Source: Heptranchias perlo
Taxonomy: Eukaryota
Assembly (NCBI RefSeq): GCF_035084215.1
Contig: NW_027139729.1
Span: forward strand, 2,790,001 to 2,854,000
Reading direction: 5' to 3'
Length of the DNA: 64,000 nt
In this document: one piece after another, positions 1-57,684 of the stretch
How positions within the stretch are numbered: position 1 is the first letter of the stretch
How the letters are laid out: each line of letters starts with the position of its first letter
Notes under the pieces: generated by a model
The model's input: only the letters and a program-made list of their open reading frames with translations
Databases searched by the model: none
What the model was told of the DNA's origin: nothing
Position numbers and translations under genes: made by a program

Positions 1-259
1 TCGATGAGCAAAGAGACTTAGGTGCCCAGGTACAGCAATCACAAAAAAACTAGTGCACATGTACCAAAAATTATTTTAAATTTCGAGGCTGTCGTATCCC
101 AAGGTATCAGTTACTTCGCCAACTCTCTGGAATTTGCTGACACAATCAGGCACCACGACCTCCCTCGCTGGTCCATTCCATCCATCCAGCACCATCTGCA
201 TTAAAAAATTGTAAACAATTTTACAACACCAAGTTATAGTCCAGCAATTTTATTTGAAA

Positions 260-298
260 TTCACAAGCTTTCGGAGGCTTTCTCCTTCCTCAGGTGAA
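260..298 (-). ncRNA. Minimal type I hammerhead ribozyme motif (Penelope pLTR)
   Basis: Reverse complement reads UUCAC-CUGAGGA-A-GGAG(AAAGC)CUCC-GAAA-GC-UU-GUGAA. Confidence 0.75.
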
Positions 299-347
299 CA
301 TTCACCTGAGGAAGCTTTCGGAGGCTTCCTCCTTCCTCAGGTGAATG

Positions 348-386
348 TTCACCTGAGGAAGGAGAAAGCCTCCGAAAGCTTGTGAA
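348..386 (+). ncRNA. Minimal type I hammerhead ribozyme motif (Penelope pLTR)
   Basis: Stem I UUCAC/GUGAA, core CUGAGGA and GAAA, stem II GGAG/CUCC, palindromic AAGCUU in place of stem III. Confidence 0.75.
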
Positions 387-759
387 TAACTTGGTGTTGT
401 AAAATTGTTTACAATTGTCAACCCCAGTCCATCACCGGCATCTCCACATCATGCATTAAAAAAAGTTACATTCAAGCATTCTGCTCATCCTGTGCCCCAG
501 GTGGATAAGACGAATCGTGGCGGGAGGACCCAGACCATCAGCCTTATGTGAGTTTAGACATTTCTGTTTTAAATTCAGCTTATTGTATTTGCAGTTTTTT
601 TTCCCTTTTTTTGGTACATTTCTAATTTTATTTCATTCTTGCACATTTTGCATTTTACACAAATTCTCCAAACCCTGTGCGCAGTGAGTGCTGAATCCGG
701 GCCCTTTGATTGACAGCTCTCTCCTCCCCCCGTCTGCTGGGCTGACACCTTCCACCACG

Positions 760-1110
760 TGACACTCTGAAGCGTCACCCACCTTTGCGCGCTGACGTCA
801 CGAGGCGTATGTGCCGCTCGGGCCAGAGGGATGCCGCACATGCGCCGCGCGGTTCCTGTGCCGCGTTCCCTCAGCAACAGGCCGGCGCCGGGAAGATGAC
901 GGCGGGCGGGCGGTGCTGTGGGCGGGGGCGAGGCCGACAGAGGGAGGGCCCGCACCCGGGAGTGGCCTGAGAGGGGAGGCGGGCGGAGTTACTCCTGCGG
1001 GCCCCGTGAATCTCCACTCTGTCAGCGGCCGGTGTCGAGCTGGGCTCGGGGGGGAGTCACTCTCCCGCCTCCCCGTCAAACGGGCCGTGGGTCGGAGCCC
1101 AAAAGTGAGC
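760..1110 (+). promoter_or_regulatory. CpG-island promoter (CRE TGACGTCA, E-box CACGTG, NRF1-like GCACATGCGC), possibly with a degenerate first exon
   Basis: High GC and CpG density with visible motifs; duplicated at ~31900-32260. Confidence 0.6.
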
Positions 1111-1124
1111 GAGAATCAAACAGC

Positions 1125-1720
1125 ACAGAGAGAGGCCGCTCGGCCCATCCCGCCTGTGCCGGCTCTGTGAAAGAGGCCGCTCGGCCCATCGCGCCTGTGC
1201 CGGCCCTGTGAAAGAGGCCGCTCGGCCCATCGCCCCTGTGCCGGCCCTGTGAAAGAGCGATCCCAGTAGTCCCACTCCCCCCTGCTCTTTCCCCACAGTC
1301 CCGGAAATTTCCCCCCTTCAAGAATTGACCCGATTCCCTTTTGAAAGTTATTATTGAATCTGCTCCCACCGCCCTTTCAGGCAGTGAATTCCAGATCAGA
1401 ACAACTCGCTGCCTAAAAACATTCTCCTCATCTCCCTCTGGCTCTTTTCCCAATTCCCTTCAATCTGTGTCCTCTGGTTACCGACCCTCCCGCCAGTGGC
1501 AACAGTTTCTCCCCATCGACTCCATCAAAACCCCTCCTCATTTTCAACCTCTCTTTTAAATCTCCCCTAAACCGTCTCTGCTCCAAGGAGAACAATCCCA
1601 GCTTCTCCAGTCTCTCCCGGTAACTGAAGTCCCTCATCCCCGGGACCATTCTGGTAAATCTCCCCTGAACTTTCTCTGCTCCAAAGAGTGTAATCCCAGC
1701 TTCTCTATTCTCTCCACATA
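1125..1720 (-). mobile_element. CR1 LINE 3' fragments; tail region locally triplicated (~1128-1256)
   Basis: Peptide PGMRDFSYRERLEKLGLFSLEQRRFRGDL typical of CR1 ORF2 C-terminus. Confidence 0.85.
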
Positions 1721-2277: not shown

Positions 2278-2721
2278 TTGCTGGGACACTCAGGTCTGTT
2301 ATACACACAGTCGGTGCTGGGACACTCAGTTCTGTTATACATACAGTCAGTGATGGGACACTCAGTCCTGTTATACACACAGACAGTGCTGGGAAACTCA
2401 GTCCTTTTTATACACATTGTCAGAGCTGGGACACTCAGTCCTGTTATACACATGGTCAGTGCTGGGAAACTCAGTCCTGTTATACACATTGTCAGTGCTG
2501 GGACACTCAGTCCTGTTATACACACAATCAGTGCTGGGACATTCAGTCCTGTTATACACACAGTCAGTGCTGGGACACTCAGTCCTGTTGAACACACAGT
2601 CAATACGGGGACACTCAGTCCTGTTGCACACACAGTCAGTGCTGGGACACCCAATCCTGTTATACATACAGTCAGTGCTGGGTGAGTCACTCCTGTTATA
2701 CACACAGTCAGTGCTGGGACA
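2278..2721. repeat. 36-bp minisatellite (GTGCTGGGACACTCAGTCCTGTTATACACACAGTCA), ~12 units
   Basis: Direct tandem units visible; 5-6 units in the paralog at 32995-33197. Confidence 0.95.
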
Positions 2722-3307
2722 TATTGGATATATTGGCCTTGGAGGGAGGACAGTGCAGATTCACCAGAATGAGACTGAAGCTTGAAGGGTTCAATTAATG
2801 AGGACCGGTTGTACAAACTGGGTTTGCATTCCCTTGAGTTTCAACGGTTGGGGGGTGATCTGATCCAGATATTTAAAATTATAAAGGGATTCGATAGGGT
2901 GGAAATAAAAACTATTTTCTCTCGTCGGTGAATCCAGAACAAGAGGTCATAAACTTAAATTTAGAGCTAGGGTGTCTTGGATTCAAATCAGGAATCTCTT
3001 TTTCACACAAGGGTAGTGGAAATCTGCTCAGGCTGATTGAAGTGGACCATGTGATATAATGTAATTTTCTGTCCTGTCAGACTTGGACATCTTGTAGATC
3101 CATTTTTTAAATTGGTGGAGGAACTGAGTGATAAGATGGATTCCACTCACTTCATCATGAGTTCTCAAACTGCCTCTCTTATCATCGAGATATCAAGGAC
3201 TGGACACACTGTGTTCAAATGAAAGCTTATTTATTTGACACTTGTACAGAATATTAAACTCCAGCCCAGTTAAAGGGATTATTAACATCAGAAACAACCC
3301 CCAACAG

Positions 3308-4051
3308 TCAGAATGAACATGGTTCAGTCCTGGATGTGATTAACATCAGCAATAACAGCAGAATCCAACCCCTGCAGTCCATGTGAACTCGCTGGTGACT
3401 CAGCAGGTGGGATGATTGAGTGAATCCCATCCCACACACAGAGCAGGTGATGGGCCTCTCCCCAGTGTGAATACGTTCATGTCTCAGCAGATCCCATTTT
3501 CTTTTAAAGCTCTTCTCACAGTTCGAACATTTAAAGGGTCTCTTATCAGTGTGAACAAGTTGGTGTTCAATGAGGCCGGATGAACAAGTGAATTCCTTCC
3601 CACACACGGAGCAGGTGAACGGCCTCTCCCCAGTGTGAACTTGCTGATGTCTCAGCAGGTGGGATGATCGAGTGAAACTCTTCCCACACACGGAGCAGGT
3701 GAACAGCCTCTCCCCAGTGTGGACTCGCTGGTGTGTCAGCAGGTTGGATGACTGAATGAATCCCTTCCCACACACGGAGCAGGTGAACGGCCTCTCCCCA
3801 GTGTGAGTGCGTTGGTGTGTCAGCAGATCACTTTTTCTTTTAAAGCTCTTCTCACAGACAGAACATTTAAAAAGTCTCTTATCAGTGTGAACAAGTTGAT
3901 GTTCAATGAGGTTGGATGACTGAGTTAATCCCTTCCCACACACGGAGCAGGTGAACGGCCTCTCTCCATTGTGTCTGCGTCGATGAGTTTCCAGCCGGGA
4001 TGAGTAACTGAATCCCCTCCCACAGTCCCCACATTTCCACGGTTTCTCCAT
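3308..4051 (-). CDS. C2H2 zinc-finger protein, 8 fingers (247 aa from MEKPWKC), with a read-through C-terminal tail
   Basis: Tandem CxxC-x12-HxxxH with TGERPF linkers; ATG at 4051; acceptor before 4403; AATAAA at 3230-3235 (minus strand). Confidence 0.8.
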   Translation of the reverse strand: MEKPWKCGDCGRGFSYSSRLETHRRRHNGERPFTCSVCGKGLTQSSNLIEHQLVHTDKRLFKCSVCEKSFKRKSDLLTHQRTHTGERPFTCSVCGKGFIQSSNLLTHQRVHTGERLFTCSVCGKSFTRSSHLLRHQQVHTGERPFTCSVCGKEFTCSSGLIEHQLVHTDKRPFKCSNCEKSFKRKWDLLRHERIHTGERPITCSVCGMGFTQSSHLLSHQRVHMDCRGWILLLLLMLITSRTEPCSF

Positions 4052-4859
4052 GGTGCGGGTGTCCTCATTTCTCTCCACGTTGGAGATCAGTGGAAGTCTC
4101 GTCTGCACAGAGAACACGTGTCTCGTTTCTCTCCACTGTGAATGGTGTGATGTTTCTTCAGGCTGTGTAACTGGTGAAAGCTCTTCCCACAGTCAGTGCA
4201 CTGGAACACTCTCAATCGGGTGTGTGTGTCTCGCTGCTATTGCAGTCACAGTGATGTTTGAAATGTTTTCCCACAGATAGAACAGATCAACATTTCTCCT
4301 ATATTTTAAGGCCGATAATCTTCAGGTGCTGGTGAATGGAGTCAGATCTTGACGTGATGTTTGGTTTGAGTTTCTCGTCTGCAAATCCGCCCCTTCTAAT
4401 ACCCTGTAAAAGGAGATAACAAAAGTCCTCACTGTGAATACAGGATAGAAATTCAGAACAGGCCATTCCAGTTCCTGTGGAACATTCTTCCCGCTCATTC
4501 CCCCAGACTGTAAATCCCTGTCCCACACACTCACCCTCCTCCCTCTGCTGAAACCCAAACCCATCACACCATCTCCAACATTTTTCCTTCTATTTAAGTT
4601 TTCTCTCTCTCCTGAAGATCCTGACTCTGACTGGGTTCAGTTCTGCACTAAATGGTTCCCCTCCCTCTCCTCCCCTGAAGGTGCTGACTCTGGTTGGGAT
4701 CAGTTCTACACTCACTGGTTCCCCTCTCCTCTCCTGAATATGCTGACTCTGGCTGTGTGTATATGCTCTGCCCCTCATTTCTACACAATGTCCCTCGCTA
4801 TAGCTGCCTGTAAGCCGTCCATCTGTGATATCTCCCAATTTTGGCGACAGACTGTCTCT

Positions 4860-5570
4860 GACCAGTTACCATTTCTCCTTCATTTAAAGAATATCCTTGA
4901 CCTGTCACAATTTCTCCTTCATTTTCAGACACTCCTTGATCAAACACCATTTCTCCGACATTTATAGATGCTCTCTTTTCCTTCAGATTTCTCCTTCATT
5001 TACAAACTCTCCCTGACCCGTCAGCATTTCCCTTCATTATTAGACGCTCCCTGACCCATCACTGTTTCTCCTTCAGATATGGACACTACCTGACCTGTCA
5101 ACAATTCTCCTGCATTTACAGACACTCCCGGACCAATCACCGTTCCTCCTTCATTTACAGACACCCCCTGACCAGTCACCATTTTGCCTTCATTTACAGA
5201 CAATCCCAGAACAAACACCATTTCTCCTTCATTTGCAGACACTGCCTGACAAGTCACCATTTCTCCATCATTTACAGACACTGCCTCATCTGTCACCATT
5301 TCTCCCTCCTTTATAGACACTCCGTCACCCGTCACCATTTCGCCTTCATTTTTAGACACTCCCTGACCTGTCACCATGTCTTCTCCCATTTATAATACTC
5401 CCTTACCAGACACCATTTCAAATTCATTTATAGACACTCCCTGACACGTCACCATTTCTCTTTCATTTATAGATATTCCCTGACCCTTCACCGTTTTTCC
5501 TTCATGTATAGACACTCCCTTACCAGACACCATGTTTCCATCATTTACAGACACTCCCTAACCAAACAAT
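4860..5570. repeat. ~40-bp intronic minisatellite (CACCATTTCTCCTTCATTTACAGACACTCCCTGACCAGT-like)
   Basis: Degenerate tandem units; paralog at 35770-36090. Confidence 0.9.
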
Positions 5571-5589: not shown

Positions 5590-8500
5590 GATTGTGAGGT
5601 TTATTCTGTATCTGTCGGTCTCTGATAATGTGTGTGAGTATGAGATTCATTCTGTTCCTGTCATTCTCTGGTATTGTATGTGATTGTGGGGTTTATTCTG
5701 TATCTGTCAGTCTCTGATACTGTATATGAGTGTGGTGTTTATTCTGTAGATGTCTGTCTCTGGTACTGTGTGTCAGTGTGGGATTTATTCTGTGTCCGTC
5801 TGTCTCCGATACTGTAGATGTGTTTGGGGTTTATTCTGTATTTGTCTGTCTCTGGTACTGTATATGAGTGGGGGGTATATACTGTATCTGTCTGTCCCTG
5901 GTACTGTATATGAGTGGGTGGTACATATTGTATCTGTCTGTCTCTGACACTGTATGTGAATGTGGGGATTATTCAGTATCTGTCTGTCTCTGATACTGGA
6001 AATAAGTGTGGTTTTTGTTCTGTATCTCTCTGTCTCTGGTACTGTTTGAATGTGGGGTTTATTCTGCATTTGTCAGTCTCTGGTACTGTATATGAGTGTG
6101 GGGTTTATTCTGTATCTGTCAGTCTCTGGTACTGTGTGAGAGTGTGGGGTTCATTCTGTGCCTGTCAGTCTGTGGTACTGTACCTGTGTGGGGTTTATTC
6201 TGTATTTTTCAGTCTCTGATACTGTACATGAGTTTGGGGTTTATTCAGCATCTGTCTGTCTCTGATACTGGAAATGATTGTGGTTTTTGTTCTGTATCTG
6301 TCAGTCTCTGGTGCTGTATTTGATTGTGAGATTCATTCTGTATCTGTCAGTCTCTGGTACTGTGTGTGAATTTGGGATTCATTCTGTATCTGTCAGTCTC
6401 GGGTACTGTGTGTGAGTTTGGGATTCATTCTGTATCTGTCTGTCTCTGGTACTGGAAATGAATGTGGGGTTTATTCTGCATCTGTCTGTCTCTGGTACTG
6501 TTTGAATGTGGGGTTTATTCTGTATCTGTCAGTCTCTGCTGCTGTATGTGAGTGTGGGGTTTATTCAGTATTCTGTCTGACTCTGGTACTGTATATGAAT
6601 GTGGGGTTTATTCTGTATCTGTCAGTCTCTGGTACTGTGTGTGAATTTGGGATTCATTCTGTATCTGTCTGTCTCTGGTACTGCAAATGAGTGTGGGGCT
6701 CATTCTTTATTTGTCTGTGTCTGGTACTGAACATAAATGTGAGGATTATTCTGTATCTGTCAGTCTCTGGTACTGTGTGTGAGTGTGGGATACATTCTGT
6801 GCCTGTCAGTCTGTGGTACTGTACGTGTGTGGGGTTTATTCTGTATCTGTCTGTAACGGGTACTGTATGCGAGTGTCAGGTTTATTCTGCTTCTGACTGT
6901 CTCTGGTGCTGTCTCTGAGTGTGTGGTTTATTCTGTACTTCTCAGTCTCTGACACTGTATATAAGTGTGGGGTTTATAATGTATCTGGTACTGTACATGA
7001 GTATGTGGTTTATTCTGTATCTGTCTGTCTCTGGTACTGTGTATGAGTGTGGGATTCATTCTGTATCTGTCTGTCTCTGGTGCTGTATGCAAATGTGGGG
7101 TTTCTCCTGTATCTGTCAGTGTCTGATACTGTATATGAGTTTAGGATACATTCTGTATCTGTCAATCTCAGCTAATTTATCTCAGTCTGGGTTTCATTCT
7201 ATAATTCAGTCTCTGAGACCATGTGCAAGTCTGGATTCATTCTATATTCTTATTTCAGTTTACATTATTGTATTTGAAACTATATCTTTAATACTTTAAA
7301 GTATATGCAGTATTTATCGAGTGTTTAATTTGTAAATATTGATACACTTTTGGATTTTCTTTAATCAAACAACGTGTGTGAGTTTTGGAGTAGTATTACA
7401 TCTTCATCTCTGAACTCTGTTGTGAATGATAATGTACCTTTCAATCTGTTCATGGTGAAATTATTTAACTGGTATATAATGTGTAGCTCAGTCGATAATA
7501 ATGGAATTAATTCTGTATCTCAGTCTGACACTGAGATTTTTGGACTGGAATGTAATATATAGCTCAGCCTGCACTAATAGATTTGATAATGTATCAATCA
7601 GTCTGTTACTGTATGAGATTTTTGGACTGGTGTGTAACATGTAGCTCAGTCTGTGCTAATGGAATTGATGTATCTTTGAGTCTGGTATGGTCTGACAGTG
7701 TTGGACTGCTATATAATGTTTGGCTCAGTCTGCACAAATGGAATTGATACATTATCATTCAATCTGACACTAAGATTTTTGGACTGGCATGTTATGTGTA
7801 ACTCAGTCTGCAGTAATTTGACTTAGAGATTCATTCTGTATTTGTCTGACTGTTACTTTGTGATTCATTCTGTATCTGTCAGCCTGTTGTACTGTGTGTG
7901 AGTGTAGGATTCATTCTCTATATGTCAGTCCCTGGTACTGTGTGTGAATGAGATTCATTCTGTTCCTGTCAGTCTGTGGCACCATGTGTGAATTTGGGAT
8001 TAATTCCATATCTGTCAGTGTCTGGTGCTGTATGTGAGTGAGACATTCATTCCATTTCCATCAATCTCTGATACTGTATATGAGTGATATATATACTGTA
8101 TCTGTCAGTCTGTGCTACTGTATGTGAGTGTGGGATTCGTTCTGTATCTGTCAGTCACTTGTACATTGTGTGAGTGAGGGATTCATTTTATATGTCAGTC
8201 TCTGGCACTGGATCTGAGTATTAGATTCATTATTTATCTGTATCTAATTTGTATCTCAGTTTACAGCATGGTGCTCAAAACTGTATCTTTAATACCTAAA
8301 TGTATAAATAATTTTTCCCAGTATTTAAGTGGTAGATAATCATATCCTTTAAAATCTGATGCTGTCGGTCATAATCAGAGAATGAGTGCACTTTTTGGGC
8401 TACTACTAAATCTGCATCGATGTGAACACAGTTGTGATTTAGTGTATCTTCCAAACTGATATGGTGACATTTTTGAACTTGTTTACAATGTGTAGCTCAG

Positions 8501-30344: not shown

Positions 30345-31268
30345 ATGATGTGGAGATGCCGGTGATGGACTGGGGTTGACAATTGTAAACAATTTTACAA
30401 CACCAAGTTATAGTCCAGCAATTTTATTTTAAATTCATAAGCTTTCGGAGATTTTCTCCTTCCTCAGGCAAATGTTTCAAGATCTCCTTGAAGCCTACGC
30501 ATTTATACATATTGAACAATACATGGTGTTTACAGACTGCCCCTGCAACTGCCCGTTGCCAAGGCAATCACCGTGTTCAGACAGAGAGGTGTTACCTGCA
30601 GAACCTCCGAATACACATTCAACAAAAAAACAAACAGGGAAAAAAAACAGAGAAAAAAAAAACACAGAGAGAGGCAGAAACATCCGGAAGGCAGAGAGAG
30701 CCAGCAAATGACCCATTATATTAAAAACAGATAACATTTGTTCGCTGGTGGGGTAACGTGTAGCGTGACATGAACCCAAGATCCCGGTTGAGGCCGTCCT
30801 CATGGGTGCGGAACTTGGCTATCAATTTCTGCTCGACGATTTTGCGTTGTCGTGTGTCTCGAAGGCCGCCTTGGAGTACGCTTACCCGAAGGTCGGTGGA
30901 TGAATGTCCATGACTGCTGAAGTGTTCCCCGACTGGGAGGGAACCCTCCTGTTTGGCGATTGTTGCGCGGTGTTCGTTCATCCGTTGTCGCAGCGTCTGC
31001 ATGGTCGCGCCAATGTACCATGCTCTGGGGCATCCTTTCCTGCAACGTATGAGGTAGACAACGTTGGCTGAGTCACAGGAGTATGAACCATGCACCTGGT
31101 GGGTGGTGTCCTCTCGTGTGATGGTGGTATCTGTGTCGATGATCTGGCATGTCTTGCAGAGGTTACCGTGGCAGGGTTGTGTGGCGTCGTGGACGCTGTT
31201 CTCTTGAAAGCTAGGTAGTTTGCTGCGAACGATGGTCTGTTTGAGGTTGGGTGGCTGTTTAAAGGCCA
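30345..31268 (-). mobile_element. 5'-truncated Penelope-like retroelement (Neptune-type): Cys-rich linker, GIY-YIG endonuclease (ORF 30721-31269), 3' pLTR with hammerhead motif (30434-30472)
   Basis: PCHGNLCKTC; VVYLIRC...YIGAT..LRQRMNEH; EQKLI; GLN; 3' end shared with the fold-back insertions. Confidence 0.92.
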
Positions 31269-31899
31269 AGGAATAGAAAGATATGCTGTTAGGGTTAGAT
31301 GAAGAAGGGTGACAGGAGGCTCATGCAGAGCATAAACACCGGCCTTCTGTACATTCACTTGGCACCAAGTGAGAAATAGGAGAATTTTCTTAATGGTGAG
31401 AAACTAGGGACTGTAGAGGAGCAAAGGGGTTTAGGTGTCCAGGTACAGCAATCAATAAAAACCAGTGCACATGTACCAAAATAATTTGAAATTTCGTGGC
31501 TGTCGCATCCCAACGTATCGCTGTCAGGTACTTCGCCAACTCTCTGGAATTTGCTGATACAATCAGGCTCCATTGCCTCCCTCGCTGGTCCAGCACCATC
31601 TGCATTAAAAAAGGTACATTCAAGCATTCTGCTCATCCTATGCCCCAGGGAGAGACGACTAATAGTGGCGGGAGGACCCAGACCATCAGCCTTATGTGAG
31701 TTTAGACATTTCTGTTTTAATTTCAGATTATTGTATTTGCAGTTTTTTTTTCCTTTTTTGGAACATTTCTAATTTTATTTCATTCATGAACATTTTGCAT
31801 TTTAAACAAATTCTCCAAACCCTGTGCGCAGTGAGTGCTGAATCCGGGCCCTTTGATTGACAGCTCTCTCCTCCCCCCGACTCCTGGGCTGACACCTTC

Positions 31900-33483: not shown

Positions 33484-34911
33484 TCACATGTGAACTCGCT
33501 GGTGACTCAGCAGGTGGGATGATTGAGTGAATCCATTCCCACACACAGAGCAGGTGAACGGCCTCTCCCCAGTGTGATTACGTTCGTGTCTCAGCAGATT
33601 CCACTTTCTTTTAAAGCTCTTCTCACAGACAGAACATTTCAGGGGTCTCTTATCAGTGTGAACAAGTTGATGTTCAATGAGGCTGGATAACTGAATGAAT
33701 CCTTTCCCACACACGGAGCAGGTGAACGGCCTCTCCCCAGTGTGAATGCGTTGGTGTGTCAGCAGATCCTTTTTTCTTTTAAAGCTCTTCTCACAGTCGG
33801 AACATTTAAAAAGTCTCTTATCAGTGTGAACAAGTTGGTGTTCAATCAGGTTGGATGAGTGAGTGAATCCCTTCCCACACAGGGAGCAGGTGAACGGCCT
33901 CTCCCCAGTGTGAACTCGCTGGTGACTCAACAGGTGGGATGATCGAGTGAATCCCTTCCCACACACGGAGCAGGTAAACGGCCTCTCCCCATTGTGAACT
34001 CGCTGGTGTCTCAGCAGGTCGGACGAATGAGTGAAACTTTTCCCACACTCAGTGCAGGTGAACGGACCCTCTCCAGCGTGAATTTGCTGGTGTCTCAGCA
34101 GATCCCTTATTCTTTTAAAGCTCTTCTCACAGTCAGAACATTTAAAGGGTCTCTTATCAGTGTGAACAAGTTGGTGTTCAATGAGGTTGGATGACTGAGT
34201 GAATCCCTTCCCACACGCAGAGCAGGTGAACGGCCTCTCCCCAGTGTGAACTCGCTGGTGTTTCAGCAGATCCCTTGTTCTTTTAAAGCTCTTCTCACAG
34301 TCAGAACATTTAAAGGGTCTCTTATGAGTGTGAACAAGTTGGTGTTCAATGAGGCCGGATGACAGAGTGAAACCCGTCCCACACACAGAGCAGGTGAACG
34401 GCCTCTCCCCAGTGTGAACTCGCTGGTGTATCAGCAGATGGGATGACTGAGTGAATCTCTTCCCACACTCAGTGCAGGTGAACGGCCTCTCTCCAGTGTG
34501 AGTCCGTTGGTGTGCCAGTAGATCCTTTTTACTTTTAAAGCTCTTTTCACATTCAGAACATTTGAAAGGTCTCTTATCAGTATGAACAAGTTGATGTGCC
34601 AGAAGATTGGATGAATGAATGAATCCTTTCTCACACACGGAGCAGGTGAACGGCCTCTCCCCAGTGTGACTGCGTCGATGAGTTTCCAGCTGGGACGGGG
34701 AACTGAATCCCTTCCCACAGTCCCCACATTTCCACGGTTTCTCCGTGCTGCGGGTGTCCTCGAGTCTCTCCAGGTTGGACGATGAGTTGAAGCCTCGTCC
34801 ACACACAGAACACGTGTACGGTTTCTCCCCACTGTGAATGGTCTGATGTGTTTTCAGGCTGTGTAACTGGTTAAAGCTCTTTCCACAGTCAGTGCACTGG
34901 AACACTCTCAC
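33484..34911 (-). CDS. C2H2 zinc-finger array, 17 repeats (16 intact); open frame without an initiating AUG
   Basis: 475-codon frame of tandem fingers; acceptor before 35108; AATAAA 33348-33353 (minus strand); paralogous ATG is ACG at 34744-34746. Confidence 0.8.
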
Positions 34912-35324
34912 TCGGGTGTATGGTTCTCGGTGATTTTCCAGTTACACTGATGTTTGAAATATTTTCCCACAGACAGAACGGAAAAAAAATTCTCCTTCTA
35001 TATTCAAAGGCCGATGATCTTCAGGTGCTGGTGAATTGAGTGACTGTCAGGTCTCCATGTGATATTTGGTTTGATTTTCTCATCTTCAAATCCTCCCCTT
35101 GTAATACCCTGTAAAAGGAGTTTACAAAAGTCTTCACTGTGAATACAGGGAATACAGGATAGAAATTCAGAACAGGGAATTCCAGTTTCTATGGAACATT
35201 CTTCCCATTCATTCTCCCAGACTGTAAATCCCCGGCCCACACACTCACCCTCCTCCCTCTGCTGAAATCCAAACCCATCGCACCACCTCCAACATCTTTC
35301 CTTCTATTTCAGTTTTCTTTCTTC

Positions 35325-53576: not shown

Positions 53577-53837
53577 CAGTTCGGAACAAATTGCAGAAAC
53601 CGGACAATGTGCAGTGTGAGCGTGTTTGTGATTGGTGGCAGGTATTAAATCCGATTGGATATCTGAAGAAACCAATCAGAGAGTGAAAGGAAAAGGTGAC
53701 GTTGCATCACTCCCAATGACCCAATCACAATCATTGCCTTCCCCCATCCCTCATTACCATAGGGCTGTGGGGCTGCCCATTTAATCCGAGCTCGGAGCGG
53801 ATTTGAGTCATTTCTGGGTCTGAGATTGAGTTTGAAA

Positions 53838-54212
53838 ATGCCTGAGGACAAGAAAGCAGCTCCCAAGAAGGGCGCCAAGAAAACCTTGAGTAAAGCACCA
53901 GCCAAGGGCGGCAAGAAGCGGAGAAAGTCGAGGAAGGAGAGTTACTCCATCTACGTCTACAAAGTGATGAAGCAGGTTCACCCCGACACCGGCATCTCCT
54001 CCAAGGCCATGAGCATCATGAACTCCTTTGTGAACGATATTTTCGAGCGCATCGCGGGTGAAGCTTCCCGCCTGGCCCATTATAATAAACGGCGCACCAT
54101 CAGCTCCCGGGAGATCCAGACCGCCGTGCGCCTGCTGCTGCCCGGGGAACTGGCCAAGCACGCCGTGTCGGAAGGGACAAAGGCGGTGACCAAGTACACC
54201 AGCTCCAAGTAA
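53838..54212 (+). CDS. H2B: Histone H2B, replication-dependent (124 aa)
   Basis: MPEDKK...[11 protein letters not shown]...KYTSSK; CCAAT boxes upstream; stem-loop downstream. Confidence 0.98.
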
Positions 54213-54240
54213 AACTCCACAATGTACTGAAAAAAACAAC

Positions 54241-54256
54241 GGCTCTTTTAAGAGCC
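54241..54256 (+). other. Histone 3' stem-loop (H2B)
   Basis: GGCTCT-TTTA-AGAGCC-ACCCA. Confidence 0.95.
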
Positions 54257-54951
54257 ACCCACAACCTCTCTGAGGGAGATGCATTTCCTAAATTATTCGG
54301 ATTATTTTAATACTGTAATATTATTCCAATCTTATAATGAAGTGATACTGTAACTGCCCCGTTGAAATCCCTGACCCATAAACTGATCCGCTCCTTCCCC
54401 TTTGCTTCGCTCTTAAAGCGTTACTATTCTGTCCTCTCCCACTCCCTTCGTGTTTCATTTAACTAAGAATCCAATCTCCGAATGTTTCCTCGCTGATGTG
54501 AAAATCCTCATATTAACAGCAACCCACCCCTTGCAGAAACACAGCGGAATAGGGGCAGAATGAGAGCTCCGGCCGGGTCCGTCTTTTCACAGACTTTTAT
54601 AAAGACTAAATTGAAATGTGTCCCTTCGCGGAATGCTGTGAATGGGATATTTGTCCCGAACCATACAGTTTGAAAGCGATGATAGAATGAGCTATAATTT
54701 AAAGCAGATTTTAAACAGCGCCAGCGATTGGTGACGGGTAGCGCTGAATATGACAAGATAAAAAGAACGGGTTTAAAATCTTGTGCTCAGGGCGACATTG
54801 ATCGAAATCCGGTCCTTTACTACACTGAAATTGGCGGGCTTTTTGAAATTCATCAAATTCCTGGTCTGACCGTTGAGGCCGGTAAATCCCGCCCTCTTCT
54901 GATTCCCAGCAATCTGATTGGTTAATGAAATAGGCAAATGAGGTGTATTAA

Positions 54952-55434
<483 letters not shown>

Positions 55435-55464
55435 AGCGGCCAAGATTTAATCTGATAACCCAAA

Positions 55465-55480
55465 GGCTCTTTTCAGAGCC
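55465..55480 (+). other. Histone 3' stem-loop (H2A)
   Basis: GGCTCT-TTTC-AGAGCC-ACCCA. Confidence 0.95.
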
Positions 55481-55586
55481 ACCCACTGTATTTATGAAAG
55501 GGCTGGTTACTGTCAGTCAAAGGACTTGATTCCGATTCGCGAAACTAACAATAACTTGTTAAACACAAATGATCCATATCGGTCTG

Positions 55587-55621
55587 TTGCAGTACTCGCT
55601 TCCGGACCGCAGATGTCGCCA
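55587..55621 (+). promoter_or_regulatory. Putative CTCF site with upstream module
   Basis: TTGCAGTACTCGCTTCCGGACCGCAGATGTCGCCA. Confidence 0.5.
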
Positions 55622-56009
55622 ACCTCCAATAGATTGAAATTCGCAGTTTGTCTGGTGAATGAGACAAAATACCGGAACCGTCAGAATTGTTAACTGGGTG
55701 GGTGGGATGCAGAAATACCAGGGACGCTTGTTATTATTTACCGTCCCATCCTCGGACAAGTCTGCCTCGGTTTGTTATTTTACCCAGATGTATACAACAG
55801 ATGCTGAATGATCAGTTGTTTATTGTGTCAGCGATTACTGAATAAAGAATGTGTGAAATTTGTGTTTGGATGTGAGTGAGGTATTTATTCTGTCCCTGCC
55901 CGTCTGATATCTGCTCCCTCCCGTTTGTACATTTCCCGTTTAAGCAAATTTCTCAAGGACATGCCATTTCAACCCAGGAGATCACAGCTCTTTCCATCGC
56001 CGATTTGGT

Positions 56010-56025
56010 GGCTCTGAAAAGAGCC
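56010..56025 (-). other. Histone 3' stem-loop (H3)
   Basis: Reverse GGCTCT-TTTC-AGAGCC; HDE-like GAAAGAGCTG downstream. Confidence 0.95.
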
Positions 56026-56058
56026 CTTGTTGCACTTGGTGCTGAAGCCGGGTCGGGT

Positions 56059-56598
<540 letters not shown>

Positions 56599-57315
56599 TC
56601 AGGGAGGGACTGTGATTCGCAGGTTTGAACCGAGCTCCAAGTCAGACCGAAACGGCGGGAGATATTGGGCCCCAATTGGCTGAGCTGAAATTAATCTTCA
56701 ATTTCAAAAAGCCCGCCAATTTCAGAGCATCAAATAACAGTTTCAAGAAAATCTCATTTCCCTCCAGCAATTTAAGAATCTCTCTCTTTATAATCTCCAT
56801 TATTTCCCACTCCTCAGCTCAAATCTCAGGCTGTTTCACATTCCGGTTCATTCTCTGATCTGTCTGTAAACGGGCGGGAATAAAGCCCCGGTCATTGCTT
56901 TCCGTAACGGGACAAAGTCCAGCTTCAATTTCAAAAATCCCGTCAGTTCCGGCCCGGTGAACCGCTCCTCAAACAGAAACTTCACATCGAACTGATAATT
57001 GAATGAGGGCAGGAAATAAAGACCGAGCAGAGAGGACACAGCGGGAGAGGGAGTGAGGAGGGATTTTACTCTGAGCGGAGAATGTAATGTCTGGGGAAAG
57101 ACTCTGTATCACCGCCTGTTCATTTATACCGTGAAACCTGGAATTCCGCTCCTTCTCTCGGGATGGCCGAGAACCCGGGCCGTTGTTTCTGATCTCCCTG
57201 TACCGAGTTTTGGGGAATCTCCCTATACTAATTAAATATCGGAAACTGCTTCCTCACCCCGAGATCTTTCCTCTCCCCGTTCCCAGGTCAGTGCTCTCTC
57301 TGTGAGGCGGTGGGC

Positions 57316-57331
57316 GGCTCTTAGAAGAGCC
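57316..57331 (-). other. Histone 3' stem-loop (H4)
   Basis: Reverse GGCTCT-TCTA-AGAGCC followed by GCCCA. Confidence 0.92.
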
Positions 57332-57363
57332 TTTGTTTTGTGGGTTTGAAAGGGTCGAGTTGT

Positions 57364-57684
<321 letters not shown>

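Follow-up and report, generated by a model that had tools for sequence, protein, structure and literature searches.

A fold-back leader fragment of a Penelope-like element at five loci in Heptranchias perlo, with a partial third hammerhead likely made by one later template switch

The partial third hammerhead of the insert at 197-463 of the window (the whole 64,000-nt stretch of Heptranchias perlo DNA analysed here) likely arose from one later template switch during DNA replication, within a fold-back leader fragment that is shared by five loci and whose ribozymes are predicted to be silenced by a hairpin. The insertion itself was found to be real but ordinary for this genome, because the 33-nt hammerhead motif had 15,734 exact genome matches, compared with 0 for a reversed control, and head-to-head motif pairs within 30 nt were present at no fewer than 2,630 loci, a minimum that covers similar hairpin scars. 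The genome-wide copy count proposed in an earlier note on this DNA thus revealed an abundant class.

The same 12-mer was found at 197-208, 452-463 and 31601-31612, and the interval between the first two copies, 209-451, is 243 bp long, so that the 243-bp insert between 12-bp duplications described in the earlier note was exact in its coordinates. At either end, 2 nt are common to the target duplication and the insert, which makes the true duplication 10-12 bp. The features are as follows:

197..208, plus strand: left target-site duplication; its last 2 nt double as palindrome-arm letters (microhomology)
209..298, minus strand: inverted arm, Penelope-like 5' leader without tail, AATAAA kept
259..314, minus strand: putative templated segment of the later switch (maximal extent; minimal 281-311), exact reverse complement of 332-387
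260..298, minus strand: complete minimal hammerhead in which the fifth stem II pair is an A-C mismatch, apparently copied from the right arm
299..300: 2-nt fold-back spacer, inverted copy of the original at 346-347
309..317: putative return junction of the template switch, with 3-nt microhomology
312..345, minus strand: partial hammerhead with the family-type G-C pair, lacking the stem I 3' strand; probable remnant of the original left arm
346..347: original fold-back spacer, identical in 5/5 filled paralogs
348..386, plus strand: complete minimal hammerhead, with the fifth pair of stem II lost to G>A at 365
386..387, plus strand: 23-bp deletion junction of the right arm, with 2-nt microhomology, common to 5/5 filled paralogs
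415..451, plus strand: unpaired tail of 35-37 nt, whose last letter is the A of the ATG that starts the element's ORF
452..463, plus strand: right target-site duplication; its first 2 nt are the element's next letters
600..1400, strandless: CpG island of the duplicated zinc-finger-cluster unit, candidate promoter
31601..31612, plus strand: empty target in paralogous unit B

As evident from this list, complete hammerhead motifs were present on both strands (348-386 plus; 298-260 minus), with a partial third at 345-312 on the minus strand, as had been described. The predicted cuts lie after 381 in the plus-strand motif and between 265 and 264 in the minus-strand motif. Two perfect inverted repeats, of 56 nt (259-314/332-387) and 31 nt (207-237/386-416), were found in the insert, together with a 47-nt direct repeat (265-311/312-358) that shows three differences between its copies. 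The left arm has 23 bp, AATAAA among them, that are missing from the right arm. What had been taken for two stem II loop variants was a difference at the fifth stem II pair, outside the loop, and reflected one G>A mutation.

The Penelope origin was borne out by a parent element that carries a reverse transcriptase and hammerhead-bearing pLTRs. In particular, a longer copy (L031) contained the same motif and leader followed by an ATG and an ORF at 2688-5393 with one internal stop, and this ORF matched Pfam RVT_1 (E 2.7e-9), which identified it as a reverse transcriptase. The pLTRs around the ORF each carry a hammerhead, with motif and leader at 2621-2736 and 5658-5758; an inverted copy of motif and leader lies upstream at 513-640, and the leader after the ORF is without the tail. 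Additionally, positions 976-2554 of this copy hold an inverted Penelope ORF piece and a reverse transcriptase fragment, presumably CR1/L2-like, in one minus-strand open frame that is probably an insertion boundary. When read by eye, the translation of L031 revealed a CX4CXXC linker, followed by VVY...C...C...YIGET and two later His residues; the GIY-YIG endonuclease region gave no match at E<=1 in Pfam and NCBIfam. The layout of L031 appears to be that of an EN+ Penelope-like element (PLE), and since its leader runs into the ATG, the insert is a copy of the last ~125 nt before the element's start codon. The linker suggests the Neptune/Nematis type, which a section of PMC8557442 defines by a CX2-5CxxC linker between RT and EN.

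The earlier note had called the insert inverted Penelope 3' pieces; the assignment to Penelope stood, and the 3' designation was only partly right, because the tail at 415-451 matched only pre-ATG or inverted copies. This tail has no match in the full element's 3' pLTR, and the pieces come from the region directly before the ORF start. The insert fits the EN+ PLE pattern of an inverted 5'-truncated copy, a one-sided tail and a target duplication; PLEs typically insert as an inverted truncated copy plus a 30-40 bp tail, according to part of PMC8557442. Compared with the EN+ PLE insertion units in sections of PMC8557442 and PMC11167929, however, the present insert is extremely short, contains the leader only and was apparently rearranged later. 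Its tail stops at the start codon of the ORF, whereas that of Anolis Poseidon reaches ~111-118 nt into the ORF.

The motifs contain the features of minimal type I hammerheads, namely the core, the G10.1-C11.1 pair, an extra nucleotide before stem II and a palindromic stem III, and these features, together with the 5-bp stem I, are similar to those of the minimal hammerheads of metazoan PLE pLTRs in the relevant part of PMC4209133. Opposite-strand hammerhead pairs 100-700 bp apart were already reported in the same part of PMC4209133; unlike those pairs, the arms here are 2 nt apart and able to pair together, and one stem II pair is broken. An Rfam scan of 100-600 at E<=5 placed 0 of 24 matches in hammerhead families; the matches were hairpin look-alikes below gathering scores, which dominate this region. 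A second subfamily with an A-U fifth pair accounted for 9,343 further genome matches. Overall, at least 15,569 copies (15,734 minus the 165 of the 33-nt motif with the A variant) had G-C as the fifth stem II pair, 9,343 had A-U and 270 an A-C mismatch, although these counts represent copies of a few master elements and not independent events, and the G-C count covers one loop. The covariation supports the view that the active element folds as a hammerhead; since the family keeps the fifth pair as G-C or A-U, the A at 365 would mark decay that breaks a covarying pair. At the pair that closes stem II, a compensatory G-C/A-U change separates the two large subfamilies; the A-U subfamily, among the matches listed, often shows ~3.08-kb spacing, as expected of tandem full-length units. 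Close tandem motifs were rarer than head-to-head pairs, with 21 loci including that of the window.

A search with the right arm, in which 40 of 384 candidates were scored, revealed the same insertion at four further loci (L002-L005), and at least 5 loci, including the window, are filled. The flanks, target duplication, spacer and 23-bp deletion of L002-L005 were as in the window, and their insert of 196 bp was 47 bp shorter, forming a plain fold-back without the partial third motif. This 196-bp sister form folded as DNA at -75.7 kcal/mol (z = -18.8), which 0 of 200 shuffles equalled. For empty sites, 30 of the best 40 loci among 518 candidates were fetched, and 30/30 contained a single target copy. 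Upon alignment with copy B, the site proved empty, with the entire insert falling into one gap, as the earlier note had stated. With 86% over the flanks, copy B is only distantly related; the closest empty paralog examined showed 93-94%. The filled copies were 98.1-99.8% alike over ~1,050 flank bases, compared with at most 94.0% between empty and filled copies, and they formed one clade with a support of 100 (2,227 ungapped columns). This tree and the single target of the 30 empty paralogs indicated an insertion and not a deletion. Within the clade, the window and L002 share 26 derived sites among the 2,227 ungapped columns, and their blocks are 98-99% identical across ~32 kb; L002 is unlikely to be a simple allele of the window locus, because similarity of >=96% ends inside the fetched stretches (~-2,100 to 29,800). 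The branching of L003, L004 and L005 had weak supports of 61 and 54, and its conflicting site patterns suggest that gene conversion has blurred the branching order. Given one filled clade and single-target empty paralogs, the insertion appears to have occurred after the A/B split but before several later duplications. The earlier claim that it postdates the segmental duplication is thus correct for the A/B split and incorrect for the later duplications, which spread the insert to at least 5 loci.

The origin of the extra 47 bp was evident from the differences among the filled copies. L003 and L004 have the same insert sequence, in which both arms carry the family G, and L005 adds one private change; L002 differs from L003 and L004 by a single G>A in the right arm only. 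The window copy carries this A of L002, and its extra 47 bp hold the complement of the A and the spacer in inverted form. A single four-point switch applied to L002 reproduced the window copy letter for letter (92 equivalent placements), while the same operation on L003-L005 did so in 0 of 3 cases. The templated segment is 31-56 nt long and returns at a 3-nt microhomology; at its maximal extent (259-314) it gives a net gain of 47 bp and is private to the window copy, and the junction 23-mer (302-324) occurs once in the 3.25 Gb genome. Some placements have the order 1-4-3-2, which represents 31% of human-chimp template-switch events in PMC5453318. The inverted spacer points to an inter-strand switch, and because the switch must postdate the point mutation, chromosomal DNA would most likely have been the substrate and not element RNA. 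A plain tandem duplication left 3 mismatches in its best version, and an origin of the two variants from separate RNA templates was ruled out by the paralog series and the single-switch fit. Arm homogenisation and spacer inversion by template switching are described in a section of PMC8604942. As in the short-range switches covered by portions of PMC5453318 and PMC8604942, a reverse-complement segment from <100 bp away, an inverted spacer and a copied arm difference are all explained by one event; unlike in those switches, the substrate here would be a retrotransposon palindrome, and an out-of-register return would duplicate 47 bp.

The earlier note had proposed that the three-motif form was made by repeated template switching at insertion, which did not agree with the simple 196-bp form of the four paralogs and with the 47 bp being an exact inverted copy of sequence that already bore a sister-specific point mutation. 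For this proposal to hold, the 243-bp form would have been built by repeated switching of the reverse transcriptase, and the paralogs would later have lost 47 bp between direct repeats. Insertion-time restarts appear common in the Penelope family, as most of the 20 other close tandem motif loci resemble restarts close to one common leader position, and a complex original form is on this account plausible a priori; slippage between 265-311 and 312-358 could also yield the L002 form, and the deeper paralog branches are weakly resolved. However, the rare A variant (165/15,734) would be needed in two of three copies from one RNA, and at least two identical deletions plus an A-to-G reversion in L003-L005 would be required, compared with two events in the favoured model; the reverse order takes at least twice as many events, and 1 site unites L003-L005 while 26 unite the window and L002. 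We consider this order of events very improbable. An error of sequencing or assembly at a perfect hairpin, with a real locus of the L002 form, is somewhat less improbable but still unlikely. The uniqueness of the junction, the -75.7 kcal/mol DNA hairpin of the sister form and the position of the window on an unplaced contig in a highly duplicated cluster are consistent with such an error, and in public contigs (four runs, one sample) none of the pieces listed spans the private junction at 302-324. On the other hand, the segment is the exact product of two switches with spacer inversion and microhomology, as in natural events, the flanks align cleanly to the sister block (98-99% across ~32 kb), and pieces covering 164-229 in runs X1 and X3 of that one sample support the left insertion junction. 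In two of the runs, presumed to be RNA, the unique flanks were covered at zero or trace depth, a result that is not evidence on expression.

With one later switch as the preferred reading, the history of the locus would consist of five steps. A single insertion into an A/T-rich target within a repeated unit of a zinc-finger gene cluster produced an inverted arm, a 2-nt spacer, a forward arm with 23 bp deleted and a tail; two short cDNAs may have been primed at two nicked ends through 2-nt microhomologies and joined head to head, which fits the 2-nt sharing at both insert ends. Segmental duplication then carried the insertion to at least 5 loci, as the filled paralogs show. The G>A at 365 probably arose next, on the branch of the window and L002, where this state is observed. 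Subsequently, a polymerase replicating the left arm may have switched onto the opposite strand in the right arm, copied the spacer and a further 11-14 nt on its way back, and returned early at the 3-nt microhomology, adding 47 bp; the order 1-4-3-2 of the four-point model fits this step. Finally, read-through RNA of either strand is predicted to form a long hairpin and not a hammerhead.

The energetics of the last step were obtained by constrained folding, in which an isolated motif adopted the monomer hammerhead fold at ~+1.9 kcal/mol. Within 190-470, the cost of the hammerhead rose to +60 kcal/mol on the plus strand, +33 for the minus monomer and +64 for the minus tandem hybrid, a site composed of the partial and complete minus-strand motifs; these values are equilibrium predictions without protein, and the Anolis PLE ribozyme cleaved only with its protein (PMC11167929). 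The simple L003 form already paid +50 to +53 kcal/mol, and only an RNA starting near 345 escaped, at +2 to +5 kcal/mol. Folding thus predicts that each motif, whichever strand is transcribed, lies buried in a long perfect hairpin. Hammerheads with a U at position 17 cleave slowly. The bidirectional self-cleaving cassette of the earlier note was not supported by this analysis: with a predicted cost of 33-64 kcal/mol in read-through RNA, a functional cassette is unlikely. A working cassette could act, for example, on antisense RNA of the CpG island, with the minus tandem motifs as an intramolecular dimer, and the duplication has indeed set two minus-strand motifs 47 nt apart, AATAAA is retained in the minus arm, and a hybrid site with a stem III of 4 bp would cost an RNA starting at 345 only ~5 kcal/mol. 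Nevertheless, any island-derived RNA contains the antisense arm first (+64 kcal/mol), the insert is absent from 30/30 empty paralogs examined, and the window copy carries a stem-breaking mutation. Moreover, minimal PLE hammerheads are poor cleavers even as dimers according to PMC4209133, where single motifs gave no cleavage and dimers cleaved weakly. We regard a working cassette as the least probable of these alternatives, with almost nothing of the likelihood left to it, and we take the locus to be, most likely, a neutral scar.

We also folded 12 of the 21 close-tandem loci; the other 9 were excluded, as a copy was missing stem I, the core or the 3' strand. Three loci, L071 (G000:C4:98674312), L079 (C11:56792874) and L070 (C3:35030904), contain two complete tandem motifs 41-52 nt apart, and no antisense motif arm was found nearby. 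Their predicted costs were +6.5 (L079), +8.3 (L071) and +17.3 kcal/mol (L070), and L075 has an antisense arm that is mutated. L071 and L079, and also L070, would be better natural substrates for a dimer-cleavage test than the window insert.

The CpG island reported near the insert was present at 600-1400. A C2H2 zinc-finger exon at 3311-4192 (minus strand) points toward this island and is repeated in unit B and many paralogs, and no zinc-finger exon was found within 26 kb leftward of the island. Since most paralogs examined are without the insert, the island does not need it. The zinc-finger exons at 3311-4192 and 33487-34941, both on the minus strand, contain 8 and 16 fingers by pattern, and their 3' ends face CpG islands; at least 40 related units are present on contigs C1562, C1456 and C1275. 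A histone gene cluster (H2B, H2A, H3 and H4 by motif) with a degenerate H2A copy occupies 44663-45106 and 53763-57684. Three more insertions of the same family were found in the window, at 30346-30468 onward, 40903-41031 and 46247-46585. The first belongs to a longer minus-strand copy of the A-U subfamily (30346-31200) with a pLTR and the ORF end, close to where the duplicated block ends on the right; the second is an even shorter fold-back without a hammerhead; the third is a nested or double insertion, in which a fold-back unit with a 16-bp duplication lies beside an older inverted arm.

The insert is a known kind of insertion altered by a known kind of mutation, and it carries little weight as a single locus. 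Its value is that of a control case, in which duplicates separate the parts made by the retrotransposon (the fold-back, the spacer, the tail and probably the 23-bp deletion) from later changes (one point mutation and one template switch). This calls for caution, as complex Penelope junctions are not all records of reverse transcription. We tentatively suggest, as a possibility that is on balance doubtful, that later template switches during replication are concentrated at the thousands of perfect Penelope palindromes in this genome, which would act as hotspots, in which case some complex junctions ascribed to reverse transcription would have formed long after insertion and could build tandem hammerheads. 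If this were true, the paralog series described here would be a dated, stepwise example.
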